Origin: Moniliella sp. 'wahieum'
Lineage: Eukaryota
Length of the DNA: 64,000 bases
Direction: 5' to 3'
Assembly: GCA_003971905.1 (NCBI GenBank)
Contig: RSEE01000083.1
Span: 186,001-250,000 of the forward strand
Shown: positions 5,361-45,119 of the stretch, piece by piece
How positions within the stretch are numbered: position 1 is the first letter of the stretch
How the letters are laid out: each line of letters opens with the position of its first letter
Position numbers and translations under genes: made by a program
Notes under the pieces: generated by a model
The model's input: the letters and a program-made list of their open reading frames with translations, nothing else
Databases searched by the model: none
What the model was told of the DNA's origin: nothing

Positions 5361-8300
5361 ATGGCCCCGCGGCGCAAGTCAACCATCAAGAGCGACGACG
5401 ACGACGACGAGGATGCACTCTTGTATGTTCTGCCTGTCCCCACCCTACTGCACCCTACTAACCTGGCCTCGTACGCTTCACCCACCCTAGGCGACCATGA
5501 CCAGCAATTCCAGTGCCCGCCCTCGCTCTGCCGGCCGCGCTTCTGGGCGTCCCAAGCCAGCTGCTGAAGAGAGTGAGGAAGATGACGAACCGCTTGCCAG
5601 ATCGGCGGCCAAATCGGAGCATGACAGTTCATCCGACAGCCTTGGTGGTTCCTCCTCCTCCTCTGAAGACGAAGAAGGGGGCGAGAGCTCGTCGGACGAG
5701 CTGGATGACGACAGAGCGGGGACGCCATCGACCAAGCCCATCTTCTCTGCTGCGGGGGGGCGCAAAAGTGGGGACGCTGTACCACACCGGACCCCGTTTT
5801 CCACCCGACTATGAGCCGTTGCCTTCGCATGTGAAATTGCTGTACGACGGGGTACCGGTCGACCTGCCCCCCGCAGCGGAGGAAGCGGCCATGTTCTATG
5901 CGGTCAAGCTCGAGACGCAGCATGCGCAGAACCCCGTGTTAACAACAACTTTTTCAGTGACTTTAAAAAATACTTGGCCAAGTACCCGCCCGTGGTGCCT
6001 CGGCCGACCTCAAGATTGTCAGTTTCAGCAAGCTCGATTTCCGTCCGATGTATGAACATTGGAAGCAGCTGAAAGATGCTGAGGCGGAGCGCAAAAAGAT
6101 GTTGGCCCCGTCCCAACGCAAAAAGGAGTTGGCCGAACGCAAGGCGGCCGAAGAGGCAATCAAGACGTGCATCGTCGATGGTCAAGTGCAACGCGTGGGC
6201 AACGTGTTGGTCGAGCCGCCAGCGCTGTGTTTTGGGCCGCGGCGCCCATCCCAAAACGGGGTTGATCAAGAAACGTGTCCAGCCCGAACAGATCACTATC
6301 AACACACCCTCAACGACCCGAAGCATCCGCCGCCTGCCCCGCCCCAGGGCCATAAGTGGAAAGAACGTGATTGAGGACAAGCATGCGACCTGGCTCGCGT
6401 TTTGGAATGAGAACATCAATGGCTCGCACAAGTATATGTTCCTCGATGCCACCTCGACGTTCAAGACGGGCTCGGACAAGGCCAAGTACGAAAAGGCGCA
6501 GAGTCTGGATGAGTCGGTCAAGAAGCTGCGGGCCAACTATACACGCATGCTGTCGTCCAAGTCGCGCAAGGAGCGGCAAATTGCGACCGTGATTTGGTTG
6601 ATTGATGTATACTCGCTTCGTGTGGGCAATGAGAAGAAGGAGGACGAGGCAGACACGTATGGTGCCTGTTCGCTCTTGAGCGAGCACTGTACCTTGATTG
6701 AGCCCAATATTGTCAAGCTCTCGTTCTTGGGTAAGGACAGCATGAAGTTTGACGACGAGTTGATCTGTACCGACCAGGTCTTCCGGAACTTTAAAATGTT
6801 TGCCCGCTCCCACGCCAAGGACAAGAAGACGGGACGATTGCCTTGAAGCGCAAGGAGGATCCGATCTTTGAGGTGGTGGACCCGGCCGATGTCAACAAGT
6901 GGCTCCAAAGCGATCGAACGGCGGGATGCCCGGACTGTCCGCCAAGGTGTTCCGTACGTACAATGCGTCGACGACGTTCCAAGCGCTGCTCAACAGAGAC
7001 GGAGGAATGGCTTGCCGCCCGGCCCAACCCGGACGAGCGGGTGTGGAACCCGGCCAACTTAAAGTTGGCCTACAATGAGGCCAACCGCCAAGTGGCCATC
7101 TTGTGCAACCATCAAAAGACGGTGAATGCGCAGTTGCACAGCAAGACGTTGCAGCGGTCGGACGAACGTACGTTTGCGCTTCGGTACGAGCGATACAAGG
7201 AACTTCAAAAGCTCAAGACGGTTGGCTCGATTGCCGAACTCAAGAAACAGTTCCCTGCCAAGGACCACGATGGGCCAAGCAGTGGAACTTGGTGGCCGAA
7301 GAGGTCAAGATCCCGGTTGCGGACATCAAGGCGCATGAGGAACGTGTGGCCGAAGAGAAAAAGGCGCGTCTGCGCGCCCGCTACGAGCGGGACATGCGTG
7401 AACGACAGTACCTCACAGAGCAGGCCAAGAGCACTTCTGCCTCGTCTCGTGGCGGCAAGCAGGAATCGGATGAGGAGGATGCGAAACCGCTCAAGCGGCG
7501 CAAGGTGTCCCAAGGTCGCAAATCGGTCAAGCCAGAGGAGGACGAAGACGCGGCGTTGGAAGGGGCCAACCTCAAGTTCAAGTCGCAAGCTCAATTGGAC
7601 GAAGAGGTGGCCAAGGTGGATGCGCACCTGGCCGAATTGGCCGAGGAGCGCAAGATCACAAGTCCTTAGCCAAGACCATCAACGTTCCCGTTGTCGCCCG
7701 TCGCATCTGGCCAAGGTGGAAGCGAAAAAGGTGGCGGCAGAACGGACCAATAAGGAAAACACCAAGGAAGTTTCCCTCGGCACGTCGAAACTCAACTACA
7801 TTGATCCACGGTGCACCGTTGCCTGGCTCAAGGAGTGGGACCAAAAGCTTGCAATCGTCCGGGTACGGCAAGGGCAAGGCGGCGCCCAAACGGGCTTCGA
7901 ATGGCAGGGCTAAAAAGGAGGAGACGGGCAAGGGAATGGTGACGCCACAAGGCGTCGGAGAAGATGGAGTTGGGCTTGAAGATCATGTCGGTGGGTATGT
8001 TTTTCCCATGACGATGCAAAAGAAGTTCAAATGGGCCGCCGAGGATGACAATGGTCAGCCCTTGTCGGCCAAATGGCAGTTTGTCAGCCACCCCGAAACC
8101 AAAATGCGCGTCATGAACTCGGCGCAAAAGAAGCAAATTGAAGAGGGGGATGCGGCGCCTGCGGCGCCCCTTGCCATTTCACGGGTGTGCGCCCAAGCAG
8201 GAAAGCGAGGACGAGGATGAGGACGATGCGCCGCTGGGCCAAACGGCGTACAAACCACGTGGATCGCGTGGGTCGAGAAGACCAAGCCCAAGGTGGAACC

Positions 8301-23049: not shown

Positions 23050-24959
23050 ATCGGCGGGGTAGAGGCATTCTTTCACGCTCTCCGTCCTCCTTCGACCCTT
23101 GCGCGCCACGGATTTGAGCTTTGAGATTCAGGTGGGCATCATGACATTGGCAACAGCCACCAGCTCATTTTTCTTGCCCTCGAACATATCCGTTGTCACC
23201 TCAGGATCCTGTTGTGAATTTTGCACCCATTCAAGCGTCTGGTTGATGGTAGTATCCAACGCCTTCCTCTCCCAGCTCCCCACGTTATTTTTCTTTTAGA
23301 GAGGCGCGCAGGTCATACGCATACTTCTCTAATTCCATGTGGGCAGCGTCTCGTTGGCGGAGTTCATCGTCCTGCTGCTTGTACTTCGCCGCATCAGAAA
23401 TCATCCGCGCAATGTCATTCTTCGACAGATGGCCGCTGTTCAAGATGGTGAGAACCTCCGAAATGTTGGTATCCAAAATGACGACTGACACGGTGAGATT
23501 GGAGTTGGCGTCCAATTCAAACGACACTTGGATCCTATGCGAAGCACGAGGGGCAGGTGGGATGTCAGGAAGTACACATTCGCCAGAAAATGGTTGTCCT
23601 CGGTGCGGGGTCGTCCCTTCGATACTTTGACCAGCGCACTACTCTGATTGTTGCGGCTGGTCGAGAAGACATGCGACCCTCGGGCGGCAGAGCCGTGTGC
23701 GGTCGATCAGCGACACAAATTTATAACCGGCAACTTGAACCCCCAAAGATAGAGGGACCACGTCAAGTAGAACCAGGTCCGTGATCCCCACTGGCTCCTC
23801 TTCTTCATCTTCATCCAGAAAGGACGCCTGGATTGCGGCACCGTGAGCCACTGCTTCGTCGGCATTAATTGAGCGGCTGATTTTGCTTTCGCCAAAGAAC
23901 TCAGTGAGGAAGTGCTGCACACGAGGAATCCTTGTTGACCCTCCAACCAAGACAACGTCAGTCACGTCATCTTTGTCAACCTTGGCATCTTGTAGGACGC
24001 TCTCGAGGAGGCTAACGCCACGCTGAAACAGGTCGTCGCACAAATCCTCAAAGAACGGCCGGGTGATAGAGGAGACAAAGTCAATGCCGTCAAGCAGCGA
24101 GTCGATTTCGATCGGAGCAGAGGGCGGAGGAAAGGGTACGTTCGCGTTTCTCGCACGCCGTGCGGAGACGACGAAGAGCACGAGGGTTGGAAGTGAGGTC
24201 CTTATCAAACTTGCGTTTGAATTGATCAGCAAAATGTTCGACGAGACGGGTGTCAAAGTCTTCACCACCGAGGTGGCTGTCTCCATTCACGGCCTTGACT
24301 CGGAATCGGGTCCCTTTGAGGGTGAGAAGCGATACGTCAAGCGTCCCTCCCCCAAAGTCAAAGACAAGCACGGTGCGCTCACCCTCAGGCTCGTTGTCCA
24401 AACCGTAAGCAACGGCAGCAGCAGTTGGCTCGTTGATAATGCGCAAGACGTTAAGCCCAGCAATGGTACCAGCGTCCTTGGTCGCCTGGCGTTGCGAGTA
24501 ACTAAAGTAGGCAGGTACTGTCACCACAGCGTCCTTTACAGGCCCGCCAAGGTACGCCTCGGCCGTCTCGCGCATCTTGATCAAAATCATGGACGAAATT
24601 TCCTCGGGTTTGAGCTGCTTCGTCTCGCCCTTGTATTGGACTTCGATTACTGGCAGACCGTCCACATCAACCACCTTGAAAGGCCAGTGCTTCATGTCAG
24701 ACTGGATCACCTCTTCGTCAAACCTGCGGCCGATAAGTCGTTTGGCGTCAAACACGGTATTGGATGCGTTCATCGCAATCTGATTATGGGCCGCATCACC
24801 AATCAGCCGTTCCCGCTCGTTGAAGGCGACACAGGAGGGGTGACATTCTTTCCACTTCGTTGGGAATGACTTTGACCCGGCCATTCTGAAAGACAGAAAC
24901 GCACGAGTTGGTGGTTCCAAGGTCGATGCCAATCGCGGGGGTGTGGGGGAAGAGGACAT
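23050..24959 (-). CDS. HSP70: Divergent SSA-type Hsp70, copy 1
   Basis: [68 protein letters not shown] and [10 protein letters not shown], followed by a divergent SBD and lid. No introns seen. Frameshifted; C-terminus approximate. Confidence 0.93.
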
Positions 24960-27079
24960 TTCGACCGAGGATAGGGATGACTTGCTTGTGGGGTGGAGGG
25001 GAGACGGCGTAGTGTTGGTTGTGTTGGAGGGATGCATCCCAAAAGGTAACTGTCACAAAACACACATATATATAGCAGTGGCGCACCCCTTTGCATCTAT
25101 ATATCCTGGCTGCGCTGGATGATCGATGAGTCCGGAAGTGCACCCTGTGGCGCAACGCCACTGAACTATTTATGCGCTCAAAGCGCTTGTCGTCGTCCTC
25201 CTCTCGCCTGCCTTTCTGGATTTGTGTCACTATGCCAATTTGCCGTCGATAACGTCATCATCAATGTTATCGATGCCTGTGGCGTGTCAGGCACCTCTTC
25301 CATGAAGATTGCTTGTTCTGGTACTTGACCCTAGCTTGAGACTAGCTTGAGTACTACTCCGAGCCGCATCAAACATATGTCCACACATGCGCCATCAATC
25401 ATCCGATCGCCGACTAATATATATATCACGCACCACTCACTACAGTTCGATGTTTTTTTCACTGGTGTCACTTCACGCTCTCCCACAGCTTTTCTCTCGC
25501 GGTTGTTGTATGGCTCCTCTCTGCAGTGCCCTTTTGGCCTGTAGAACAAGCTCTCGTATACCATCTGCTATAGAGACGTAGCCATGCAAAGGGGTAATCC
25601 TATTATAACACACCAGTGCAGTCACCCATTGCTGTCAGAGGCAAAACTCCCACACTGCACGCAGCTCCCTGCTGTAAGTCTATATGTGCGCATCAATGAT
25701 TCCTCATCTCTTCGATAGTCTCATCACGGTCTACTCCACCCGGTTGAGGCTCTGACAATCCAGGGGATCTTTTTCATATGCTCTCTCGGACTTTATAGGC
25801 CAGTGGAGAATCGAAGTGGAGGTGGTCATATAGTGGTTCTGTTTGAAGCACGCGCACCCCGTGTGATCCTGTTGGTAAAGCGGGGGGAAAGAAGCGCATC
25901 GTCGACTACGGCAATGCCCCTGCCGTTTTTATTGTATCGGTTTATCAGAGAAGGAGCCCAACAGTGGTACGTGTTCCTACAGCGTTTCGCTCATGAACAG
26001 TCATCTCTCCCAGTACTAGAAGGCCAGCGCAACCTCTTCTCCGACGGTCCCGTTGTCAATTGTAATGAAGAACTGAGAGCATTGACACGATTGACGCTTT
26101 CGGAAAAGCAGCATGATACACATCTCTGGAAAGGAGCGTTTGTCCCACACAAGGGTATAGTTCCATGCCCAACAACCATAAACATATTTGCCCAGGAGAA
26201 TACAGAGTGTATGTATAGGGGGCCAGGGTGATGCAGGTGATGACATGGTCAAGGCAAGGCATGATGGCCCTTACATCAGGAGTAGCGCCGACCGCGCTTC
26301 GTCGGGCTTATACGCACTAGCGCTTCCGTCCGGACCAAAAAAGAGGGTGAGCAAATGATGGTGAGACAGGGGTTACACACACGCAGTCACGATGGACACA
26401 AGGGGTGTGTGTCTGTGCGCTTTTTGCCAGCCGGGGGGTAAGATAAGAGGGTTTTATATAGCGCTTCAATGCGTTGGGGAGGCGCAGAAGCGCTAGCAGC
26501 CAACGCGTGCCCGTGCACAGGAAGCTGCGTTTTCTCGCCAGTTGCGCCAGTTTTCCTCATTTTGCTTCAAGCTTCATCGATCATCTCTCCGCATGTGCCT
26601 CAAGTTCCACACATACGTTCCACAAGCTTCACTACACGGATACAATAATCCGGCTCACTCTCCCTTGTGTCGCTCTCTCTAAATCAATCATTATAACCGC
26701 GGTTCTCACGAGATGTGATACTTATACTGTGCCCCTTTCAAGTCAACAGAGAGAGTATGGTTTAAAAAAAAAGGTTACCGATTACGGATGAAGCTGATGA
26801 GCTAGGTAGAAAAGACAAGAGCGCAGGGACAGTTGATGGTGTATTGCACATTGCACGTGGGGCTACAGAGGCTCAAGAATATTCCTGCCCTCCGCAGTAG
26901 AGGAATATTGGTAGGAATGAACCGGAAGGTTCAGGCCCTTGTGACTACTCGCGCCACCATACCCCCCAGTGTGGCGTCACAAGTTGATGAAGCGTCGTTT
27001 CGCCTGGCTTGATCAGCTTGATCGTAGTATCTATAGTCGAGACGACAGTATATATGCATTGTGTGGTAACAGTCGATTT

Positions 27080-29860
<2,781 letters not shown>

Positions 29861-30420
29861 GCATTCTACTACTATTCTAGACGCAACTTTCCCGTTGGAC
29901 TGCTAATTTGAAATCTGACGGCCGTAGCTTAATAAGCAGGAATGAGGTTACGATGGAGTAGAGCGAGAAAAGCGCGTGGCGGTAGCAAGGAGGCAGGCAA
30001 CTAGCACAGGAGGAAAGAAGAGAAGGAAACGGGGGCTGCGCGCGCCAAGCGCAGCGGGCGCGGAGCCGCCCCGTACAGGTGCCGGTGCGGGGGTCCAGCG
30101 CCAGTTAGGCACAAGCTATTATCGAATCATTAAAATCATTAGTACCTTCCACGCCACAACAACACAAAGTAGTTGTCGTATCTCACTCAGCCCCTAAAAC
30201 CGGTTTTGTTACGCCGCCGACTAAACCCCATGCCTCGCCGCTAGCACGTGTTGGACACGTCGCTGCTCATCATGTTTTCATTAGACGCTACCTTTACCTC
30301 TGACTGTGGGCAGATATATGTACGTGTGTCGCAACCCCAGTTTCGTCCTACTACTAGGTAGAACCTTCATGTAATAATCCAAGCACTGTGCCCCCGCTTC
30401 GCCTCATCATGCATCACCGG

Positions 30421-33335
30421 TCACCGCCTCCGCTTCAGATTTGCCTTTTCGCGCTCGTGCTTCTTCTGCTCTGACCTCTCTGTCTGGAGATCGGACATGA
30501 TGCGGTCGATGTGCTTCTTGTAGCGCGCATCTTCCTCTTGCTGCTCCTTCTCCTTGATCGATGCTGTGAAGCGTGCATCACGGCGCAGTTCGCGGATCGT
30601 CGACTTGCGCTCCTTCCTGTGCAACGCGCGCAGCTTGCTCGCCTCGGCGCGCTCGGGATCGGGGTCGGTCGAGACGCCCGATACAGAAAACTTGGGTGCA
30701 TGCATCTCGAGTGCCTTGGCGCGGTGCGCCTGCAGACGGAGGAAGCGCCGATGCGACTGGGCCAGGCCCACTCGCCTGTCCAACCCTTGGGCCAGCGCAG
30801 GTAGCTCGGGCCCAGCTGCCTTGCCTGCGCCCTTGACCAAGCTCACCAGGGACGGAAGAGATCAACGTATGCTTCGCATCCCGTGTAGAGCCGAGCGAAT
30901 ACTTCAATCAATTTGGCTGCTTGCGATAGAAGCTGGGCTCCAGCGGGCGGTCCCTCCCCCTTCCAGGCCAGCAGACTCACCAAGTCCACGCGCTTCCTCC
31001 CACCCTGCCTCGCCCTCAATCAAGGAAGCCTCGTCCATGGCAGCAGAGACTTTGGCCTTTCGCTTGGGCTGCAGAGAAGTGAGTGCCGCCAGGTCGTCCT
31101 GGGAAACAGCCATGCCGTACTCGGCCGCAGAGTGGAGGGCAGCGAGACGGTCCGAGTCGGATAGAGGCACCAGACCAAAAGAACCAAATGTAAGAAATTG
31201 AGTGCCTCAGGTACGATCCGCTTGCTCTCCTTCTCAAAGGACGCGGAGAGAGAGACGAGGTAGAGCCCGCGGCCGTGTCGGAGACAACTGAGGCAGGACG
31301 AATCCGGGCATGAGCCAAGTACTGGGCCATGAGGATCTGGGCCGATGTTGATACAGGGTGGGAGCGATCGGAGGTGGCCAGATTAGCCCAACGAGACGCA
31401 GGAAGGAGAGTTCAGAAAACGATGGCCAGGTTCGCCCGTTCCTCCCTGTCGCCGCGGCAGCAAGGCCACGGGTCAGGTTGCGCTGCATCAGCGTAAGTTT
31501 GGTGCAGAAAATGTGAGCCGCCGTGTCGGGGAAGAGCTTGGAAAGATCAAGGATGTGAGGCAGGAGCGTGTTGAGAAGAGAAACTGCCTCCTTACTGCTC
31601 ACCTCCGTCTCACTCCCGCTGGCGGACTCCTGCGCTTGTGCACCAAGGTAGAGAACATGATCCACCAGGATCTCGAGGAACGTTTCGGTGTGCTCCCGGT
31701 TCTGCGGGCCAAGACTGGGATTGTACAAGGTTCGGATCCGCTTAATCACTGTCGGCACCTGTTGGGTCTCAACGTTATGCTCTTGAAGTAAGGCAAGGAA
31801 GTCGGCATGCGTCTCGGGAGCAGGGAATGTGTAGGGAAGTTGGCTCGTTTCCTTTTTTGAGCCGGACGGGACCTGTTTGCTTGAAGCACCGACAAGGGCC
31901 TCAGCTTCGCCGCCAGCCACGACCTCCTCGTCCGAGTCCATGTCTTCCCCTGGTTTGGACAGGCCTTCCAAGTCGGCCAAGTCATTATAATTGTGTTCGT
32001 GGTTCTCGATCTCCTCTTCTTCATCATCCGAGGAACCAGTCGCTCCGTCTGCGTCGTCGGAGGTATCCTCCTCCTCTTCAGAACCCGATTCTGCACCAAG
32101 ACCTTGTCCCAGGCCGTAGGCCTCTCCTGCCGAGACACCCTCAAGGATAAAGTCGTCATCCAAATCATCAGCACCACGCTCGTGACGCTCCAAAAGCTTG
32201 GCACGCTTCCGCTTGCCCGCTCCCGTCGCAGTTGCTTCATCCTCCGCAGCTGCTTCGTCATCCGAGTCGCCACGCATGCGTCGTAACCGTTCACGCTCAG
32301 CAGCTTGAAGCCGTTCTGCCTCCTCTGCCGCCCGCTCCTCGTCCGTCTTCATCCGGTCCGTCGGCTGGGCCCTTCGCTCATACACCAAACTGCGATACAG
32401 TGCATCGTACGTGCTCCCCCCATCGGCCGGCATGGCATTGGCGCCCGTCGCTGGGTTCTCAGTGGTAGGTACAGTAGATGGTACAGGCGCCTCGCTGGGG
32501 TGAGTCGGAGCCGGGCGCATTGCCAGAAGATCATTCTTAATGTCATCCAGAGCATCGTCCAGCTCATACCGCGTCTCCTCATCTTGTTCCCGCGCCTTTT
32601 GCCGCTCGTACTTGGCATTCTTGGACTTGAGCATAACCTCCGCCATGATCTCCTCCTTACTCCGCGCTTTCCCTCTGCGTCCTCCCTGGCCACACCTTCC
32701 GGCAACTCGTCGTCAAAGGGGTTGTAGGTTTGTTGGGCACCTGCTTCGTCCTCATCGTCGGTACCCAGTCCGGCACCAAGAACACCATCGTCCATACCCG
32801 ATAAGCTTTGGCCAAAGTGGGTCAACCCTTCGTCCTCCGAGTCATCAAGGTTAAACAGGCTCGCCTTACCGGCGCGGCGGGCGCTGGCAGAGCCGCTTGT
32901 GAGCTGTCGTTTGCGTTCAGCGGTGAAACGTTCGAGCATGCGCTGCTCCACCGACATGTTGGGGTTGTTCTCGCCGAACCGGCGATCGACAAACGCGCCG
33001 CTCTTGTGCCGGTCCTGCAGCTGCGGCAGCAGCTGGGCCTTCCGTGCGGCTATGGCAGCTGACTTGGACTCAGCCGGCCGGCCGACGATACCTTTGGCGT
33101 TCTTGTGTGGATGCTGGCGCGTGTGAGGATGTCGCGCTTTTGCTTGGTAACTTTGGTGTCAAACGTGCTGGCAAACGCATCGCCCAGGGCGGAGCGTGCC
33201 TCGAGGCGTGTGCGCGCCTTGGCGTTCGCGCCGGAGGCAGACGAGCGCTTCTTCCCCTCGGACGGACCTCCCCGCAGACCATCGCTGACCGCTCGGTTCT
33301 TGAGCGGGCCAGCGGGAACCTCCCTTCTTGGCCAT
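30421..33335 (-). CDS. NOP14: Nucleolar 40S biogenesis protein Nop14
   Basis: FDTKVTKQKRDIL, GAFVDRRFGENNPNMSVEQRMLERF, MAEVMLKSKNAKYERQ, ERRAQPTDRMKTDEE, LPYTFPAP and ERKSTIRELRRDARF. Confidence 0.95.
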
Positions 33336-33600
33336 GGCTGTGGTGTGGGACGCCCAAGCGGTTGATGTTGATGTGCAAGGTGGGATATTTTTTTTGGGCC
33401 ACACGGATCGGTGCAAGTGCTGTCGACTGCCAGTTTCAATTTCTGACCACTTTTTTTTTAAATTACTTGGCTGCCTCAAACTAGCAAACCAAGGGTGAGG
33501 TCTGCTCTGCCCCCTCTCGCGTCGGCCTCAGGCCCACTGGAGGAAGGGAGGCCGTCCGCTTGCGACAGACCACCATCTCCACCGCGTCGTTCCCGAGAGG

Positions 33601-35382
33601 ATGGACTCGGCCGCTAATTCGCGCATCGATCGCTCCCATGCCGCCCAAGACCGCATTGAAGCCAAGCTGAAGGCCGCGCGTGAGCGGGCTGCGGCCAAGG
33701 CAGCTCCCCCGGCCCAGGACGGGCATGAGGAGGAGGACCAAGCCCCGTCGCAGCTCCTGTTTCCCCTTCCCATCCTGCTGCCCTGCCGCCCCACCTTCCC
33801 TCCGACGAGTCTGATACGAAGCCACAATCATTCGGCGAGCTGGGCATCACCCCTCCTCTCGTCCGTTCGCTTTCCAACCTGGCCATCACCGTCCCCACCG
33901 ACATTCAAGCGCTTACCATCCCTGCCATTCTGGCTGGCGGGAGGGATGTTGTGGGCGGAGCCCAGACGGGTGCCGGTAAGACCCTCTGTTTTGCTCGCCG
34001 ATATACAGCGCCTGGCTGCCGACCCCGTCGCTGGATTTGCCCTCATCCTCACCCGACGCGCGAACTGGCCGCAGCTACACCAGCAATTCGTAGCTGTAGC
34101 CCAGGGCATCCGGCCGCCGCTTGGCTTGCACTCGGCTCTTGTGGTGGGTGGGTTGGACCAGCTCAAGCAAGCGTCGACGCTGGCGAACGTGCGCCCGCAT
34201 GTCATCATCGCCACCCCGGGTCGACTGGTGGACTTGCTGCGGAGCAGTGGCAACGGATACAATGGCCTGCTGTCGCGTTGCCGCTTCGTCGTCCTGGACG
34301 AGGCAGACCTGCTCTTGACGCCATCTTTCGCTCCTGAATTGGCCTATTTGTTCCAGGAGGCCCTGCCGCCTGCCAAGCAGAGGCAAACACTCCTCTTCAC
34401 CGCTACCTTGACCGAGTCGATTGATGCGCTGGTTGCAAAGAATGCGACACGTGCCTCTGACGAGGGCAAGTTGCCACCGCTTGTTTGCAAGATTGATCAG
34501 GCTACCTCCACCCCCAATGAGTTGATTCAGCGCTACATTCTCGTTCCTTCACATATGCGTGAACCCCACCTGTATCATATGCTGCGCCATTCGCCGGCCT
34601 TGCGCCAACTGATGCGCAGCCAAAGGAGCGCTCCTCGGATTCCGGCACGTCTGACTTGCAGAACGAGAATGAGGAAGAAGAGGAAGAAGAGGAAGAGTAC
34701 GAGGTACTCCTCACGAGGAAGAAGGGGAAAGCGAGGATGAGGAGAAGATGCAAGCCAAGCTAAAGCAGACACCTACCATCATCTTTGTCAACCGCAGCTC
34801 CATGGCCGAGCAAGTGTCGAGGATGCTGACTCTGCTTGACATTCCCAATGTGGCGTTGCACAGTCTTTTGGACCAGCGACAGAGACTGGACAACCTACAA
34901 GCCTTCCGTGCTGCTAAGTACCCTGTGCTTGTTTCTACCGACGTTGGTTCGCGCGGCCTTGACATTCCCCAAGTCCAATGCGTGATCAACTTTGACTTAC
35001 CGGCGGCATGGGAGGACTATGTGCACCGCGTCGGTCGTACCGCCCGCCATGGCAAGATCGGATGGCAGTGAGTTTCGTGACGGAGCACGATGTCAAGTTG
35101 GTCCAGTCGATCGAAGAGAAGATCGGGACTCGGTTGACCGAGCTCAAGGGCTTCACTGACCGCGCGGGTGGGTCGGGGTTCACATTACACAAGACGGGAG
35201 AAGAGAAGGTGCTAGAGCACTTGTCGCGCGTGATGGCGGCCAAGCGCACTGCCCGCCTCGATATGGACGATGCCAAGATGGGCGAGCGCGGCAGGAACGA
35301 AACAAGCGCAAAAGCGAGCTCCGATCCGACTCTGGTCGCAAAAACACAAAAAGAACAAACCCAAGCGCAAGGCCTAAAATAG
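33601..35382 (+). CDS. DBP8: DEAD-box RNA helicase Dbp8 (DDX49)
   Basis: [15 protein letters not shown] (after repair), [44 protein letters not shown] and [11 protein letters not shown]. The motif I context and C-terminal RVMAAKRTA fit Dbp8. Confidence 0.85.
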
Positions 35383-35454
35383 AGAGAGGGAAGAAGCAAT
35401 TAATGGATGTGGAGGCGTGTATGCAGTCTACCTCAACTTAGTTGTCCGGCAGAG

Positions 35455-36262
35455 TCATAGGCAGCAGAGCAAGGCTACCCTACGCCCCTCGGACTGGAGA
35501 AGGTTGTACGTCGAGGCGGCGTGGCCCGTATCTTGCACCTCGACCTGGATGCCCAAGTTGCCCAAGTAAGCTCGGATTGGGGGTGGCAGAGGCAGCGCCC
35601 GAAAGCCCGTACCAAAGATGAGGATATCTGGGTAAGCAGTTAGGATGTGTTTCCTCCCTTCAAAGACCCGAGCGAGGGGATGAGAATCCAGAGAGAACGT
35701 ACCTGGCTTGGGTGCTACCACCTCAAATAGTTTCCAAATTTCGTCTTGGCCCGTCTCCTTGTCGAGCCAGGCCTCCCAGCCTCCGGGTACAAGAGCAGGA
35801 GAATGCGAAGCGGGCGCAGAACGACCATCAGGGGGGATTGGCGGAGTCGTGCATTCATTGCATTGGTCAGCACGGCCGTGGGGCTGAGGGGAGGCGGGCG
35901 CCAAAGAAAGAGTGTATTGTTGAGGATGATCAATGGCTCCTCGGTTCGCTGCCCCGTCGAAAGAAGAAAGTGCCCCTTGCGTGCTGGGGACCCAGGGGGG
36001 GCATTGGGGTCAGGGTTTCCCACTCGGGTCACCACCAGACTACCATCTTCTCTTCCAGTAGGTTAACGTAGTTAGCGCTCTTGCCCAGCTCGGGGGCCGC
36101 CGCCTCCTCTGCGTCAGTACGGAACGTCTTGAGCTCCGGCCCATGCGAGGTACAAGAGGAGCTAACGCCGCGATAAGCACATGATCTCGTGACACGATGT
36201 TGGGCCTCAGTTGGCGGGAAGCGGTCCTGGCGATAAGAGAGCGCGCGATACTGGAAGACCAT
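35455..36262 (-). CDS. NDUFAF3: Mth938-domain protein, NDUFAF3-like complex I assembly factor
   Basis: PDILIFGTG...PIRAYLGNLGIQVEVQDTGHAASTYNLLQSEGRRV is the Mth938/DUF498 signature. The Arg-rich N-terminus could be a mitochondrial presequence. Confidence 0.85.
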
Positions 36263-36820
36263 TGGAGCGCGCGCATCTTAGAAAGCAAGAGTGGTGGTTG
36301 CTTCGCCATCAGCTTCAAGCACATCGGCAATGCTAGCGCGTGACATTCTCTCGCGCGGAATTGATTCCGCCCATTTACCCCACATTCTGCGCCACCGCTC
36401 GACTGCAGAGCAGTAAGTATTTGATGACTAGTGGCTCTTTCCAGGCGCATATTAGCACCACACGCTTCGGCAATCTGATCGATGTATAGGATTCAGGGAT
36501 GCCCTGGAGAAATCCATCCCAAGAGCATGCTGGATCTGGGCCCGCAACATATGGTTGGTATAGCACACCGACCATTCCCTCAGGTGTGGGGTTGTGAAAT
36601 GAACGAAAATAATAAAGTTGTACTGCGTATAGTATCAGAAGCCCAAGGTGCACATCAGTCTCTGTCATACACACTCACAGTCATATACAGTGTTGCTATT
36701 CAGTTTTCTCCTTTGTTCGTGGTGCACATCAATATGTATGTCCAAGTGTAAAAAGAAGGTATGCACAACAGAGAGCAAAATGGAAGAAGACAACAAAGAC
36801 ATCAAAAAAGGCGAAGAACG

Positions 36821-38525
36821 TTACTTGTCATTAGATGGCTTCTGACTCAATGTTGTAAGATGATGGAGTGAGTGTAGTGGCGTCAGCCGTGTCAGCAATT
36901 GCAATGTCATGGTGTGCTCGCGTTCAAGGGTGGTGTGGTTGGTCACACGCCAAATGAGCAGAGGTACCACAATTAAGAGCGCTCCCACATTGAGCCCCCA
37001 CGCGACGCCCAGTTGCTCCTCAAATGATTTCTTATTGTTCTCCATTCCCCATCCTGCCACGTTGCCTGCACTCTGGATGGCCTTGTACAGTCCGCTGATG
37101 TAGGCAAGCTTGGAGATGTCGTTGCTAAGCATGCCAAAGATGGAGTAGCACAGTACTTGTGTACAGGCGTCGATAAGCCCCATGCACATGTATAGTACTG
37201 CCCGGCCGCCATAGGGATTCGACTCGGTCCAGGATTGTCGGGCAGGGAGCAACGTGATAGCCACAGTGGATTCGAGGCCCACACGGGTAGGACTCTCGGC
37301 GTACTGTCGAAGGCTCATTCCCTCGGCCGCATAGTGCTCCTTGAACTCCATCAAGACTTTGTACGAACCACCCCACACGGTCCAGCAGACGACGAAGGTG
37401 ATCGCCCAGCCGGCCCATGCACGATGGCGCCGAGTTAGACGCGGTGTATCCAGTACGAAACCCATGATCATCGCGCCAAACATTTGAGCGAGCCAGTAGA
37501 GAAGCGAGTTGAGGCCACGAGCACGAAGGGAGAAGAAGTAACCATTGTACACGGTTTGCTGCCAGGCATAGCAATAGTTGGAACTGAGAGCAAGAGGACG
37601 AGAGCAAATCCAGGGATCCTGGCACAGTACCCGCACCATGCCTGTCATCCCTCCTTAAATGGTAACTCTGTGGGAGTGACCCAAGGGTGCCATCGGAACG
37701 GACCGTCTTACGCGGATTGCGCAACAAAAGTGTCGCGCATGCTCCTACAAAGGTAATCACCGTAAAGGCAAGTACGTGCTGTTGCTCACCTGATTGTCAG
37801 ACGTGTTCCATCCCAGACCCATCTCGATGGCTGATCCCAGGACGCCTCCCAGATTAAAAATGATCCAGAACAACGCGATGGCTGTATACGAAAGGAATTG
37901 TCAGGAGGAGCAGGGGGGGAAGAATGCTGAGCGACGTACCTTTGCCCTTGTTCTCCTCGGTGGGGTAGGAAAGCATCAGAGCACCCTGTCCAGTCCAGAG
38001 GAAGGAAGCACACATCCCAAGATGGCACCCGCGGCAATGACAAAGTTGGTGTTGCCATTGATGTTGTAGCTGAGGAAAGAGGCAGTGTAAAGACAGTAAC
38101 CAAGAGCGCCTGTTTCGACAGTGTCAGGTGCAAGGCGTTGCGCAGAAAGGATGGCGTGAAAATGACTTACCAATGAAAATCATCCTCTTGGAACCAACCA
38201 TGTTGTGGATACTGCCCGAGATGAAAGAGACGCCAGCAAAAACGGAGTATAAGGCAATGTTGGCCTTAACCGCTGCACTGGGGTCGGACAGGCCGCCACC
38301 TCCCATGCCACCAAGGGCGTTGAACATGCCTGGGCCAAGGAAGCAAACGAAGCCGAGGATGCACACCTGGACCATGGCCGAATGATACCAGCCCAGGAGA
38401 CCTTTGCGGCGTATGACATGGACCACGTCCACCTCCCCATTGGTGGGCAAGGCGACAAGCCCAACGTCGATGTGATCTTTCCGGTCGAGCGACCCTGTTG
38501 GGGTTGAAGCAGAGGCAGCAGACAT
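36821..38525 (-). CDS. UNC-93-like MFS membrane protein
   Basis: QVCILGFVCFLGPGMFNALGGMGGGG, LSYPTEENKG, FWIIFNLGGVLG, FFSLRARGLNSLLYWLAQMFGA and GLYKAIQSAG. Introns at ~38110-38170 and ~37888-37939. Confidence 0.9.
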
Positions 38526-39232
38526 GGGCGAGAGGGGGTGTGTGGTGGGGGGGAAGAAGATGATAAGGGCAGGGGGCTGAGCGCTGAGTGAATATAGTCA
38601 GTGCTCAGCGCGTTCAGCCTTCAAGTTGGCGCTGTGGATGTATGGACTGCGATAAATGGCGTACACTCGGGCTGCGTTGCGGGCCAACGCGGCAGTGCCA
38701 ACCTGTGGGCGTGTTGGGAAGCCTTGGGCTGTGCTGTTGTGTCGAGCATGTCTGGCCTCTGTGGCCCGTCTGGCCCCTGGCGGAAGCTAAGCCAGGAACG
38801 ACCCGAAGATCGACGTGGCGGGGGGCTGGCTCCCATGCGCCCCATGCTCCCGGTCCCGACCCTCGCCCCCACCCGTCACTACACTGGGCTCGTGCCTGGG
38901 GCCAGCGGAGGCTGGCGCCGTGCCTAATGCTCCTGCCAGCTTCCGGCATCCTTCGCGGCGCTTGTCCCGGGGCTGAGCGCCGAGCACCCGACCGTAGCAC
39001 TAGGGCGCTGTCGGATCACTGACTGCCCCACGCTTGTCCCGCAACACGGGCCAGGCACAGGGGCAGCCTGGGGGGGTCTATCAACGGTATCTCTCCAAGC
39101 TTAAGGCTTAACGCCATACTACGTAATCACCCCAGCCCCTAGTCGCCCCCGCAGCAGGCCCCAGCTGCTGTGATGCATGATAGTTTGGCCGTGCGGCGGG
39201 CATAAGCATAAGGCCTAAGCTCTAAGGGTGAA

Positions 39233-39325
39233 TCTAGTCACTAGTCACTAGTCACTCAGTACTCAGTTACTCACTACTCAGTACTCACTAGCCTCCTAGT
39301 CACTAGTCACTAGTCACCGGTCACC
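39233..39325. repeat. Degenerate heptamer array (ACTAGTC/ACTCAGT)n
   Basis: Seen directly: ctagtcactagtcactagtcactcagtactcagttactcactactcagtactcactag... Confidence 0.8.
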
Positions 39326-41493
39326 CCGGCCGCCACGCGCTTCCCCGTAATCGATTGCCTCGGGCAATCAGACAGGCGTTTTCGCCGAAGGAAACGACGC
39401 CCCCGCAATCGCGTGTCTCAGGCGTTGCAACGGATCTATCCTGAGACGGCAGAGGAAGAGCCGGGCAGCCTGTGTTGGCTCAGACACCTCAGATTGAACG
39501 ACCATCAATCAGGCAGAACCTGAGCGGCTGAGCGCGCTGTGGCTACGCTTGCGGATCGCTAGTAGATTGGGAAGAGGAATGTCGAGGAGGTCTCGGATGA
39601 ATCATCAACACGAGCTCACTTTTATAGTAGTTGATGTCTCCATGTGGCAACGAGGAAAGCACCACAGTGACCCGGCGGAGCACGCCCTAGCAATACCACA
39701 ACCTCGACCCTTAGTGCCTGCACCATAAAACGGGTAAGCGCGGAGCTCTGGCCGAGAGATGTGGGGAAAAGTCCTACTGTTGCACAGACTGAGTTCGGGA
39801 GTAGAGAGGGTGCACAGGGTAAGGAGTTACTGATTGTGGGGACACAGACCAAGACCAAAAAGACAGGCGGACAGAGTCGGAGGTGGCGAATACGGGCGCA
39901 TATACGCTCATAGGTCGATGGGTGTTCTGAGTGGTGTCTGGTGCTGACATGTGACAGCCGGCAACATTCCCATACTGTTCTGCCTGGCATGTATGATGGG
40001 TCGAGGTTGGCCTGCACCGTCCAATGTTTCCCTGTGGTTGGCTAGGTCTTCTTCAGTTAGCTTACCTACTCAGAAGGTTTTCTTTTCTTGCAGCAATACC
40101 TGTATTTGCGTTCCAACCACCTGTATACCGCTCCCGTATATACTCGATATACTCCTCCTCTCTCTCCGCTATATCGCTGTCTGCATCGTAGAGACTGTTG
40201 TGTCTCGATTGCGTTCTGGCATACTTGCGGCGCTAAACCGGCATGCCTTGACACGGGGGGGGTCACGAAAACGGGGGAATGGAGGTGGTCGGTGGGGGAA
40301 CAAAGAGCATGAAGGGGGCAAAATGAGATCTTACTTCTTTGCTGCACTGTAAGATTTGTACGGCTACGAGACGGTTCGTCTTTTATGCCATCGTACACCA
40401 CCGTGCACCACAGAGCACACTATGGACCTTCTCTCGAGCGTGGTGAAGCTGGCACCCTGCTATGCCCAATGTTGGATTAGCTTGTCGCCCATCTGCGATG
40501 TGGAAGTCGGGACTATATATAGCCCATCAGGCGTGCTGGGTACAGCCTGGCACAGCACAGGCACTGGGGATAAGGGCTACCGGCTCGATTGGTGCTCTGG
40601 AGATTGCGAGGATGCATGTTGGGGGCGCAAGACTGAGCCACAGCGCAGCGGACGGGATTTGGGCACTGGGGCGAAAGGTCAACTGCTGAGCGGGGGTCTG
40701 AAGAGGAGGGCGGTTGCAAATGGTGGCGAGTGGTGCTCTGTGGACCGTTTTGGCTGCGCACAACGACACTACTGTCCGCCCATTCATCCCCATAATGAAA
40801 GCTTTCTTCCCTTGGATTTACTCTTAGTAGTTCTGTTCTAGTCTCCTGTAGCACTTAGCAATACTACGCACACATGCTGCACTATAACTGCGCAATATCC
40901 ACTGGATCACCCCGATTGACACATATTAACCACGAAAAATCCACTGATTACCACTGATTACATTTAGTACCACTGATTCCCACAGAAATACGACGCAGTG
41001 AGTGTCACGGGCTTATCTTCGGTTATCGACAGATACCTCTTGGGTCCACATGCAAGGACATGATGCATGGCTGCACCCAAAATTCCGGAGCGCACGTTTG
41101 CCGGCACTCCAACACTGAGGCTAATCAACGAGATGTTGCACTTGAGCGTCGGACCGTGAGCATATTCGGCGGAGACTTACGCGCTGAAGACCGGGTGAAA
41201 GCAGGCGGAAATCGATCCCATACTATACACGTACTATTATGGGTACACACTGATGCAGTCCGATCGATGAGAGGCAAATGTCGCTTTTGGATTGAAAAGG
41301 GGCGTCGAGAGGCACATAAGGGAAATCGACAGCGCCGCAGTACGGCATTGATGCGCTCCTGAAATGCCGCCCACGTCAGACGGTAGCCCATATTAACAGG
41401 CAGCGCCCACTGAGCGCAGCCGGCGAGGGTAACAATATGCAAAAGGCTGAAATGGCACAGCCACTCTATATTGATTGGCGAGGGCATCTGTCG

Positions 41494-41502
41494 ATATATA
41501 AG
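41494..41502 (+). promoter_or_regulatory. TATA box of Hsp70 copy 3 (ATATATAAG), conserved in copy 2 at ~29401-29409 (minus)
   Basis: Identical GTCGATATATAAGAG ~105-115 bp upstream of both ATGs. Confidence 0.6.
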
Positions 41503-41611
41503 AGAGTGTCGACGCCGAATTAACCATACGCACTCGCACCACATTCACCAACACCACCAGCACTCTCCCCACCACCTCCCCGCCCAGCACTTCTCCGCCT
41601 CCTCACCTACC

Positions 41612-43453
41612 ATGTCCAAAGCAATCGGTATCGATCTGGGCACCACGTACTCATGTGTTGCTGTTCTTGAGGGTGAGGACGGGGTCACGATCATTCGCAA
41701 CAGCGAGGGCAATAACACCACCCCCTCGTATGTGGCCTTCAAACATGGAGAGGCTTATTGGTGATGCGGCGTTCAAGCAGACTGCCATGAACACATCCAA
41801 TACTGTGTTTGACGCCAAACGACTTATCGGCCGCAGGTTTGACGAAGAGGTGGTCCAGGATGATATGAAGCACTGGCCTTTCAAGGTGGTTGATGAGGAC
41901 GGTCAGCCGGCAATTCAAGTTCAATACAAGGGCGATACGAAGACTTTCACTCCCGAGGAAATCTCGTCCATGGTTTTGTCCAAGATGCGCGAGACGGCCG
42001 AGGCGTACCTTGGCGGGCCTGTAAAGGACGCTGTGGTGACAGTACCTGCCTACTTCAACACCTCCCAACGCCAGGCTACCAAAGACGCTGGTACCATTGC
42101 GGGGCTCAACATCTTGGGCATTGTCAATGAGCCCACTGCAGCTGCCATGGCTTACGGGTTGGACACAATGACTGAGCGTAAACGCACTGTCCTCGTCTTT
42201 GACTTGGGTGGCGGTACGTTTGACGTATCTTTGCTTGACATCACAGAGGGCACATTTGCCGTCAAGGCCACCTCCGGTGACACCCATCTCGGTGGCGAAG
42301 ACTTTGACACCTGTCTCGTCAACCATTTTGTCGAGGAATTCAAACACAAGGAAAACAAGGACATCACATCTGATCCTCGCGCTCTTCGCCGTCTCCGTAC
42401 TTCTTGCGAGCGCGCGAAGCGCACTCTTTCCGAGGCTGAACATACCACAATCAAGATTGACTCGTTATTTCAGGGTATTGACTTTATCGCCTCTATCAGC
42501 CGGTCTCTCTTTGAGGAGTTGTGCAAAGACCTGTTTTCCCGTATCATTGGCCCTGTCGAGAGCGTCCTGCAGGACGCGAACATTAACAAAAATGACGTAA
42601 CTGACGTTGTCTTGGTTGGGGGGTCAACAAGGATTCCTCGTGTGCAGCGCCTTCTCACGGAGTTCTTTGACGGGCGCAAACTCAGTCGCTCAATCAACCC
42701 CGACGAGGCGGTTGCCTATGCGCCGCCATCCAGGCTGCTATTCTCGCGGGTGACACCACTGAGTTAAGCCAAGAGCTGATTCTGCTCGATGTAGTCCCAC
42801 TGTCATTGGGAGTGTACCAACTCAGTGGTGTGTTTAATGCCATCATCAAACGCAATTCAACGGTGCCCACCAAGGAGGTGAAACCCTTCACAACGACTTG
42901 TGACGACCAGACTGCTATCAGATTTGCCGTGTACGAGGGTGAGCGGTCCCTCGCCGAGGAGAACCATTTTCTGGGCGCGTTCAGGCTAACTGGTATCCCC
43001 CTGCGCCCCGGGTGAGCCTACGGTTTATGTGACCTTTGACTTGGACTCCAACTCCATTCTCACGGTGTCGGCCGTTGACAAGAAGACGAACAAATCAAAA
43101 ACGATTACCATCACCGATAGTGGCCGCCTGTCAAAGGAGGACATTGCGCGCATGGTATCGAATGCCGAGAAGTACAAGCAAGATGATCACGAAGCGGTGG
43201 CACGGATTAATGCCTTAAATGAGCTGGATTCGTACGCCTGCCAATGCGCCGCTGGCTGCGTGAACATGGTACTGCGGACAAGCTCAAGCCGAAGGAAAGG
43301 GAGGTACTGGAAGCGGCGGTCAATGAGACGTTTGACTGGCACGGCGAGTACTCAACGAATGCTTCAAGGAGATGTTTGAAGAAAGGAAAACAAACCTGCA
43401 GTCCATTGCAGCCCCATCGTGCAGGCATTTGAGCAGCGGAGCCGGAGTGTGTA
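41612..43453 (+). CDS. HSP70: Divergent SSA-type Hsp70, copy 3
   Basis: [16 protein letters not shown]; long ORF 41655-42767 with [34 protein letters not shown] and [13 protein letters not shown] contains VYEGERS. Ends ...[20 protein letters not shown] after frame repair. Confidence 0.94.
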
Positions 43454-45119
43454 GGCCAGTAGTGTGGCCATGCACAACTCCAGGCCATTAGTCCCGGTTG
43501 CCACTCAAGTCCTCACCTACCTACATCAACTGGCAGGAGCTCATCCCAAACACCGATGTCTCCGGGTTCCCTGGCCAGCGGGGTGTTGACTGTGATCCTC
43601 AGGCTCCCAGTCGGTAGACCAGGTTCGCCTCGGTTCCATCGGCTTCCACGCTGACGTCCCTGCGTGTCACTGTCCCTGTGCCCTGCACACTCTCCTGTGT
43701 GACTCACTGTCCTTGTGCCTAGTCCGGCCTCCTATATAGATGCCTCTGTACCCAGACCCACTCTGGCTCCAATCCATCACCTTCTCTCTCCTTCTGCCCG
43801 TCCGGCTCCCTAGGCCAACAGAGCGCTGGAAACGCCGCACCAGGCGGTACAAGTCTAAGTCGTGAGCACCCTCTGTTGTACACGGCATGTACTACATCGA
43901 TGGTCACAAGTGGTTGCGGGTGGAACCCATACATGCCACTACTTTTCTCTTCCTTCCCTTTCTTTTTCTGCTTCTTCTCTCCCTTCTCTTTCTCTTCTTG
44001 AATCTGGAAGCCACGTTCGATTTGTTATCCTAACGACGAAGTGCGGTCGAAAAGACCTCCCTCTGCTGCCTGGTCTCTCTTATCATGATCACCGGCATCA
44101 TCGTATGGCGGTCTTCACAACACGACATACAGAAATTGTTGACGTGTTGACAACGTGATGCCCACTATACTATGGTTTCGCCATGAAGCCGAGCACTCTA
44201 TTCGATGCACACAGTCTTTCAACTACTACTATACAGGGCCGGTTTAACGGCAGCAATGAACGGAACCGATAGTGCAAATTGAGAACCGTGGCTCACAGAG
44301 TGACAGAGTGAAGTTCAGTTCCCCTCAAAAGAAGCTAGGCAGATGGCTCCAACAATGATCGGAAAAAAAGCCCGTGTGCGGGAGCAAGACTGTGGTGACG
44401 GCTGAAGTGGGTATTTGGGTATTTAATTTAACGTTTAAACTGCTTTTCTTTTCTTTTTTTTGGCTATATGTCGTGCTGCGCTATATTGCGAAACGATGGG
44501 CGTGCTCTTGCACATTGGAAGACGCGCACTCTCGTTCGCTCAGTGGGGGCTACGGCAGAGGTTGTATTACTAAGTCAGACGCCTTCTGGAGGGTGTTGGT
44601 GATGGGAAGGGGAACGCTGGGTTGGAAGGGAGGGGAAGGAGGAGGCCCGCTTTTGTCTTTCACGTGACCTGGTTCGGTTGGTTCGGTTGGTTGGTCTGAG
44701 ATCTGCGATCTGACTTGTGATAAGGTACGCGCAGCTGAAAACACACTGCTGGGGTGCGGTGGCCGGGAAAGTGCCCCCGTGCTGAGGTGGCGGCGATCTG
44801 CGCAGCAGCTAGAATTCAAGCGAGGCGCAGCACAGCGCCAGTCTAGACTGCGCAAAGGCCAGGTGCCATCCGCCCTATCTCACATCTTCCGTCTCACACT
44901 AACCCCCCCATGCCGGGTGGCCCGCCGGGCTGGAGCAGTGTTGCAGCAGTGTCGCAGCTTGTGCACCCGCAGCTGGGAGAAGGCCAGACCACCCGTGCGT
45001 TCGAGCCGTTCAGCACACCCGAGTCTTCCTCGTCCTCCCCTCTTCTCTTTTTCTTTTCTTCTCTCCCCTCCCCCCACCACCACCGCCTGTGCCGCGACTC
45101 CGAGTTTCCGCCCCGCAAC

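Follow-up and report, generated by a model that had tools for sequence, protein, structure and literature searches.

Three divergent SSA-type Hsp70 copies with altered peptide-binding clefts in a Moniliella contig

The stretch of DNA considered here, in the following called the window, comprises 64,000 nucleotides of Moniliella sp. 'wahieum' (assembly GCA_003971905.1, contig RSEE01000083.1, positions 186,001 to 250,000 of the forward strand), and when it is searched by tblastn with the canonical SSA protein P0027, three Hsp70 loci are found and no more, here called copies A, B and C (Table 1). The reading that we favour, and that on balance we hold to be probable, though with considerable reserve, is that the three copies are real, still or recently coding, lineage-specific SSA duplicates under weak constraint, which have kept the Hsp70 clamp, have a remodelled peptide-binding cleft and lack the C-terminal EEVD motif. 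Few eukaryotic proteins are as conserved as the SSA-type Hsp70s, and, judged from sequence comparison, the trio appears to evolve several-fold faster than its canonical relatives. The three copies probably do not constitute a new kind of system but are relaxed or specialised SSA duplicates.

According to the favoured reading, each protein would still work as an ATP-driven Hsp70 clamp. From established Hsp70 biochemistry one would expect a client preference that the remodelled cleft has altered and probably narrowed, and proteins that, having lost EEVD, are no longer coupled to co-chaperones of the TPR type or to EEVD-dependent class B J-proteins. The trio would then serve as specialised or auxiliary chaperones under low constraint, in the manner of Ssq1 after the duplication of Ssc1, and not as general SSAs, and gene conversion would homogenise part of the nucleotide-binding domain (NBD) between the copies while their substrate-binding domains (SBDs) diverge. 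Duplicates in which the engine is kept and the client cleft is rewritten are natural experiments in the evolution of chaperone specificity. If expressed, the three copies would offer natural variants of the cleft, three in number and built on a common scaffold, by which the residues that determine peptide preference could be probed together with the loss of EEVD in vivo.

Placement within the fungal SSA family

The first-pass annotation of the window had described three intronless Hsp70s of SSA type, and this description is borne out. An alignment that allows for both frameshifts and introns needs no intron in any of the copies, and all of the 10 open reading frame (ORF) pieces of A, B and C match the Pfam family HSP70 (PF00012) with E values from 1.9e-141 to 3.8e-19. 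Jointly, these pieces cover positions 28-565 of the 599 positions of the profile, and two further N-terminal pieces cover positions 1-34. NCBIfam gives sub-threshold matches to DnaK and HscA only, as expected for fragments of eukaryotic Hsp70s. Among chains of known structure, the bit scores go down from 228-211 for cytosolic Hsp70/Hsc70 over 209 for BiP, 190 for SSB and 161 for mitochondrial Hsp70 to 154 for DnaK, and there is no Hsp110 or Ssz chain among the 60 PDB matches listed. A targeting peptide is absent in the trio, as it is in SSA.

The phylogenetic position was determined with a site-heterogeneous LG+C20 tree of 29 rows and 645 columns, with BiP as outgroup; five divergent database representatives and one row for the endoplasmic reticulum were left out, and the SSB, SSC, SSE, SSZ and plant T1 sequences stand outside this tree. 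Copies B and C are joined with a support of 100/99, the trio with 99/97, and the trio together with 11 Ustilaginomycotina SSAs with 100/100, the trio being nested inside. From this nesting it follows that the trio is a lineage-specific expansion of the resident SSA, in agreement with what the first-pass annotation had proposed. That annotation had also considered membership in an already described atypical Hsp70 clade; among fungi no such placement was found, the trio lying in the canonical SSA clade. A quick LG+G4 tree had put the trio outside the fungal SSAs (unstarred support 91), a result that was discounted as a long-branch effect after the LG+C20 tree. The end branches of the trio in the latter have lengths of 0.36, 0.57 and 1.74, to be compared with a median of 0.099, i.e., they are 4 to 18 times as long. 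The overall identity of the copies to P0027 is 54-61%, whereas the mean identity among ascomycete SSAs is about 82% (PMC3879978, table 1).

The search for closer relatives was made with the SBD of copy B, in the form of a 252-aa ORF. A word-indexed search at 90% clustering, which covered proteins of at least 442 aa and no shorter fragments, gave a best identity of 54% among the 120 matches listed. An exhaustive HMMER search of 1.84 billion cluster representatives gave a best identity of 58% among the 150 matches listed, where, since the representatives are clustered at 50% identity, a closer relative could hide inside a canonical cluster; the high-identity matches that were inspected all have canonical loops. 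In a JGI metagenome scan the 80 loci kept have 46-54% identity to the query, and the ESM Atlas returned generic Hsp70 clusters only. None of these searches brought out a closer relative of the trio.

Frame breaks and coding constraint

The alignments require 21 frame corrections in 5.57 kb of Hsp70 sequence, i.e., 3.8 per kb, most of them for 1-base deletions. How these breaks should be read depends on the frequency by which similar breaks occur in other genes of the same assembly. The gene for a DBP8/DDX49-type DEAD-box helicase is 1.77 kb long and has to be corrected 10 times (5.7 per kb) when it is aligned to the database relative P0229, with which it shares 482 of 647 residues; every break falls within a conserved helicase motif, there is no stop codon, and with a second reference, P0230, the number of breaks is 8. 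The nearest named relative of this helicase is from Tilletiaria anomala, followed by those from Tilletia, Ustilago, Malassezia and related genera, which puts the host in the Ustilaginomycotina, a group in which it has no close relative that is both sequenced and annotated. In Nop14, which has one unbroken stretch of 1.3 kb, the positions of the Pfam profile continue without a gap across two of the frame changes (569/570 and 598/599), and at a third the matched pieces are only 56 nt apart, so that no intron fits at any of the three. In topoisomerase I the frame shifts in the conserved core, near 6215 (+). The spectrum of breaks is alike in the Hsp70 copies and in the control genes, mainly 1-nt deletions without stops. 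Two of the breaks in B, furthermore, bound a tract of 186 nt with only three substitutions relative to C, and since natural mutation would not give such a ratio of indels to substitutions, these two breaks are read as assembly noise.

Because the density of breaks in the Hsp70 copies is at or below that in the essential DBP8 gene, and because Nop14 and topoisomerase I are broken too, the breaks are to be seen as indel noise of the assembly and not as a sign of decay; as far as can be judged from the DNA itself, they are background errors. Indel errors are present in the assembly at about 2-6 per kb, essential genes included, and pseudogenisation should not be inferred from frame breaks in this genome.

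In an assembly that is demonstrably rich in indel errors, one may ask whether also the divergence of the copies could be artificial, i.e., whether sequencing errors, or haplotypes of one SSA gene that the assembly failed to collapse, have given the appearance of three. This we find hardly credible. The copies differ from each other at 16.6-30.7% of the aligned coding positions (16.6% for B and C), which far exceeds any substitution error rate, and the differences are biased to synonymous sites. The DBP8 gene of the same assembly agrees perfectly with its relative over long blocks, and the three copies do not share one orientation, nor do they lie between the same single-copy genes. Repeat-induced point mutation was considered as well and ruled out by a ratio of transitions to transversions of 0.82-0.86 over 291-531 differences between copies, with no overwhelming excess of C-to-T and G-to-A transitions.

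If the divergence is real, the copies could nevertheless be redundant, non-functionalising duplicates, produced in a birth-and-death process of SSA genes, released from constraint some time ago and drifting towards pseudogenes, in which case the divergence of the SBD and the loss of the tail would be signs of decay. Evolution by birth and death, with putative pseudogenes, has been described for SSA (PMC3879978), and we regard this alternative as possible, though rather unlikely. To see what it predicts, consider the read-through path of each copy, which has no in-frame stop in 584, 592 and 594 aligned codons of the three copies, respectively. Under random substitution to half the extent by which a copy differs from its nearest paralogue, the expected numbers of stops have means of 7.2, 4.1 and 4.0, i.e., 4-7 per copy, and the probability of finding none is at most 0.017. 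The G+C content at third codon positions of the trio, 0.61-0.63, is held at the level of the host genes (0.61-0.72), above the intergenic G+C content of 0.49-0.56. The nucleotide-binding motifs and the linker are intact in the alignment, the breaks are no denser than in an essential gene, and the stop codons of the three copies, which come directly behind the lid, occupy corresponding positions.

A further prediction concerns ω, the ratio dN/dS of nonsynonymous to synonymous divergence. When one member of a pair drifts neutrally, the expected ω of the pair is 0.5. Pairwise estimates by the method of Nei and Gojobori are 0.32-0.37 for the NBD, 0.43-0.67 for the linker with the β-sandwich of the SBD (SBD-β) and 0.22-0.57 for the lid, and the proportion of synonymous differences (pS) is larger than that of nonsynonymous differences (pN) in every domain of the trio comparisons. 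The bootstrap confidence intervals (CIs) for the NBD are 0.25-0.46 for A and C and 0.22-0.47 for B and C, and since both upper bounds are below 0.5, coding constraint on this domain is indicated rather than one neutral partner. Values near 1 across both domains, which the first-pass annotation had associated with decay, are not seen. The values are higher in the SBD-β than in the NBD, and the NBD, for which that annotation had foreseen low values, is itself strongly relaxed.

A number of observations weigh against the favoured reading, and several of them are also points in favour of decay. As assembled, none of the three copies has an open frame, and three of the breaks in the SBD of A occur within 112 nt. 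Stop codons adjoin inferred breaks in A (TAA near 23287-23290) and in B (TAG at 27548-27550, next to a T6C4 run), the latter being in frame if the local indel falls in the run that follows it, and it is possible that a real premature stop shortens the distal lid in A and B. Copy A has lost the YEGER motif. Copy C reads LGIVNEPT (42114-42137, +) where A, B and the canonical SSAs have LRIINEPT, so that Gly has replaced an Arg which we take to be the equivalent of DnaK R167, a contact of the J-domain. The divergence extends over the whole SBD-β, beyond the cleft, and here the value of 0.67 for B and C has a CI of 0.46-1.25, which is compatible with neutrality. In every domain the ω values are large by the standards of Hsp70s (0.32-0.67 from the NBD to the SBD-β), and in the NBD they are about ten-fold the dN/dS of 0.045 given for SSQ1, itself fast-evolving (Kominek et al., PMC3879978), from which it follows that the constraint is weak. 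No orthologue of the trio was found in other genomes by the protein, cluster-representative and metagenome searches, so that long-term retention cannot be argued. Finally, the three-unit heat-shock element GAAnnTTCnnGAA and its complement-phase form have no match in the window, where 0.3-0.4 are expected, for a spaced motif that indel errors in the assembly can break.

ATPase domain, client cleft and tail

The distribution of the changes over the domains is seen from the positions that are invariant in 25 canonical fungal SSAs. In the NBD there are 255 such positions, and 197, 204 and 212 of them are kept in A, B and C, respectively (77-83%). The corresponding numbers are 5, 5 and 5 out of 7 in the linker, 10, 10 and 7 out of 19 in the cleft loops (37-53%), 26, 32 and 34 out of 53 in the rest of the SBD-β (49-64%) and 6, 7 and 8 out of 12 in the lid. 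The SBD is far more changed than the NBD, in accordance with the first-pass annotation and with the ω values above, and the cleft is only slightly more changed than the rest of the SBD. That annotation had also called the ATPase domains conserved, which is correct in comparison with the SBDs but not in absolute terms, since 17-23% of the invariant NBD positions are changed and the NBD of C has at most 73-74% identity to any single-domain Hsp70 among the matches listed.

All eight motif strings quoted in the first-pass annotation were found in the DNA. The motifs that we take to be responsible for nucleotide binding, among them DxGGGTx, and the linker D/ELxLLDV are read in A, B and C, in places split by a frame break, and the motif RALRRLRT, located in copy C, is read in the alignments of all three. 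The motif EEVD is not found in the tails of A, B or C in any reading frame, and there is no Gly/Pro-rich tail.

In canonical SSAs the loops L1,2 and L3,4 of the peptide cleft are near-invariant (GIETAGG and FSTYxDNQPGVLIQV), and of the database loops tallied, at least 283 in number, 218 read IETAGG. The trio does not have these sequences (Table 1), and its loops differ among all three copies. A local pair of indels was tried as the source of the odd loops and excluded, since either of the alternative frames across the L1,2 loops gives stops or unrelated residues. As these frames make no sense, the odd loops are substitutions, as the first-pass annotation had maintained, together with the insertion of four residues in B. 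Non-canonical L1,2 and L3,4 loops, e.g., VQIAGK and IEINDD, are also found in scattered database Hsp70s (P0130, P0012, P0348, P0392 and others), among them the 'Hsp70 18-like' proteins of the plants Striga and Salvia, from which it follows that remodelling of the cleft recurs in Hsp70 duplicates of unrelated lineages.

The residues at the cleft may be compared with those of DnaK, in DnaK numbering. The presumed equivalent of F426 is F in all three copies, that of V436 is A in copy A, V in copy B and I in copy C, and that of I438 is, in the same order, V, I and F, and by these residues the floor of the pocket stays hydrophobic throughout. The pair that we take to correspond to E402-T403 has become QV, GI and YQ, and the presumed arch pair (equivalents of M404/A429) has become A/S, K/Y and L/T. 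For copy B, the one copy for which a structure was modelled, AlphaFold2 (AF2) gives for the 252-aa ORF, which runs from TRIPRV to the lid, a model with a mean pLDDT of 79.5 and with values of 81-95 over most of the sandwich. In this model there are eight strands and the lid helices, and the insertion is placed between predicted strands 3 and 4. When superimposed by Foldseek on peptide-bound SBDs, the model has TMt 0.78 with 1dkx (rmsd 1.9 Å over 188 columns) and TMt 0.77 with 4po2_B (rmsd 2.2 Å).

A different interpretation of the same loops is that the copies belong to a diversifying, receptor-like family of chaperones, with positive selection on the cleft loops and gene conversion that keeps the ATPase domain uniform. 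In the comparison of B and C, the youngest pair, the nonsynonymous change is indeed concentrated to the 23 codons of the cleft loops, with pN 0.52 against 0.20 in the remaining SBD-β and pS 0.39 against 0.33, so that pN/pS in the loops is 1.33. The variation of the loops between the copies, set against their uniformity in the database, and the presence of a conversion tract in the NBD are also in line with such a family. However, in the window of codons 400-440, which holds the cleft loops, the CIs of ω are 0.64-2.82 for B and C and 0.00-1.47 for A and C, and since both span 1, positive selection is not demonstrated. Three sequences are too few for a test of individual sites, and the fraction of invariant positions that is retained in the cleft lies only slightly below that of the remaining SBD-β. 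In 64 kb there are three copies and no large family, and no defence- or receptor-type domain is found in the flanks (72 ORFs scanned). We therefore consider this interpretation improbable.

The diversification of client specificity that the first-pass annotation had suggested was not confirmed, since the domain-wide ω is everywhere below 1, only the cleft of B and C exceeds it, and plain relaxation fits equally well. For the decoy, defence or receptor-like role that it had also put forward, no evidence was found. We give little credence to the still wider view that this fungal lineage has a variable Hsp70 family of which the trio is the part in view, and in which selection diversifies the cleft, conversion keeps the ATPase uniform and the proteins, having lost EEVD, stand apart from the general chaperone network. 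If that view were true, it would mean that a chaperone scaffold has been reused for specific binders, for example of particular clients or of effectors or toxins of competitors, or serving as decoys.

The evidence for gene conversion within the NBD comes from the synonymous sites. In codons 101-150, pS between B and C is 0.00, compared with 0.26 for the whole gene, and the probability of zero synonymous change at 37 sites, a site count that is estimated, is about 1.6e-5. In codons 51-150, pS is 0.13-0.19, against 0.2-0.8 elsewhere, and it is low also between A and B/C. This unevenness of the synonymous divergence points to gene conversion among the paralogues within the NBD.

Relation to known systems and surroundings of the genes

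The canonical fungal SSAs (Ustilaginomycotina SSA/HSS1, P0026-P0048) have the same two-domain architecture as the trio, with the NBD motifs, the linker and the lid, and without a targeting peptide. The differences are the end branches of the trio, 4 to 18 times the median, the 36-63% of invariant SBD-β positions that are changed, and the missing Gly/Pro tail and EEVD. Ssq1 of yeast is, like the trio, a faster-evolving duplicate of a general Hsp70 with changes in the client cleft. It arose by duplication of Ssc1, and its cleft changes have been read as specialisation under relaxed purifying selection (PMC3879978). In contrast to the trio, Ssq1 is mitochondrial, is conserved in many species, has one known client and has a dN/dS of 0.045, to be compared with 0.32-0.67 (PMC3879978). 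SSE/Hsp110, SSZ and LHS resemble the trio by an Hsp70 fold under relaxed constraint with non-canonical substrate domains, but the trio does not belong to these subfamilies; it has a canonical linker and SBD length, and its best relatives of solved structure are canonical Hsp70/Hsc70.

The plant cyHsp70T proteins of type T1 are, like the trio, lineage-specific and clustered derivatives of cytosolic Hsp70 without EEVD. They are described as variable in copy number, often clustered, diverse at the C-terminus, barely expressed and of doubtful function (PMC10687569). Their diversity is mainly in the SBD-α and the C-terminus, whereas the trio, with three copies only, has changed in the β-sandwich and the cleft loops (PMC10687569). 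Because the trio nests in fungal SSA, its origin would be independent of that of plant T1 and the resemblance convergent, as judged from a tree that does not contain T1. In the literature searched, no description of a fungal protein corresponding to the plant cytosolic Hsp70s without EEVD was found.

Table 1. Positions of the Hsp70 copies, their cleft loops and flanks, and the control genes in the window
Feature	Position	Strand	Remarks
Hsp70 paralogue A	23128..24959	-	tblastn and frameshift-aware alignment; end ...ANVMMPT-stop; 7 frame corrections; most divergent copy
Hsp70 paralogue B	27402..29298	-	end ...GRHFY-stop; 8 frame corrections; in tandem with A
Hsp70 paralogue C	41612..43454	+	end ...QRSRSV-stop; 6 frame corrections; inverted relative to A and B
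Cleft loops of A	23623..23746	-	located motifs; L1,2 LGVQVAGY (23723-23746), L3,4/strand 4 (23623-23667)
Cleft loops of B	27968..28105	-	L1,2 LGIGIKGG (28082-28105), L3,4 (27968-28024); 4-residue insertion
Cleft loops of C	42806..42931	+	located motifs; L1,2 LGVYQLSG (42806-42829), L3,4 (42887-42931)
Putative gene-conversion tract in NBD of B	28845..29030	-	3 mismatches in 186 nt relative to C 41880-42065 (+)
5' flank of B	29299..29638	-	about 340 nt, common to 5' flank of C (41150-41611)
3' flank of B	27086..27443	-	about 360 nt, common to 3' flank of C (43819-44126); includes purine-rich low-complexity stretch
DBP8/DDX49-type DEAD-box helicase	33601..35365	+	control of assembly quality
Nop14	30424..33158	-	second control; at least 3 frame changes

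The window, in which the G+C content is 49-67% when taken over 2-kb intervals, is fungal nuclear DNA. The tandem copies A and B are spaced by 4.35 kb, and single-copy housekeeping genes lie between and around the Hsp70 copies. A Pfam family is assigned to 16 of the 86 window ORFs of at least 170 aa that were scanned, and the neighbours identified in this way are topoisomerase I, RICTOR, a protein kinase, an aspartyl protease, Nop14, the DBP8-type DEAD-box helicase, a DUF498 protein and an enzyme of CCA/poly(A)-polymerase type. When the flanks were scanned for mobile-element or partner genes, 70 of the 72 ORFs of at least 70 aa had no Pfam family, and the other two were the Hsp70 N-terminal pieces. 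Gene-poor stretches at 25100-27300 (G+C 0.49) and 38700-41500 (G+C 0.56), in which no ORF of at least 70 aa has a Pfam family, adjoin Hsp70 copies, and the genes that flank them have higher G+C.

Copies B and C have flanking sequence in common on both sides (Table 1), and the unit duplicated between them appears to include promoter and leader sequence. Copy A has only coding sequence in common with B and C. A purine-rich low-complexity stretch of AAAGAAGAG type is found at 27247-27293 and at 43945-43991, within the shared 3' flank, and in the 3' flank of C about 370 nt without counterpart in B lie between the end of the gene and the shared part.

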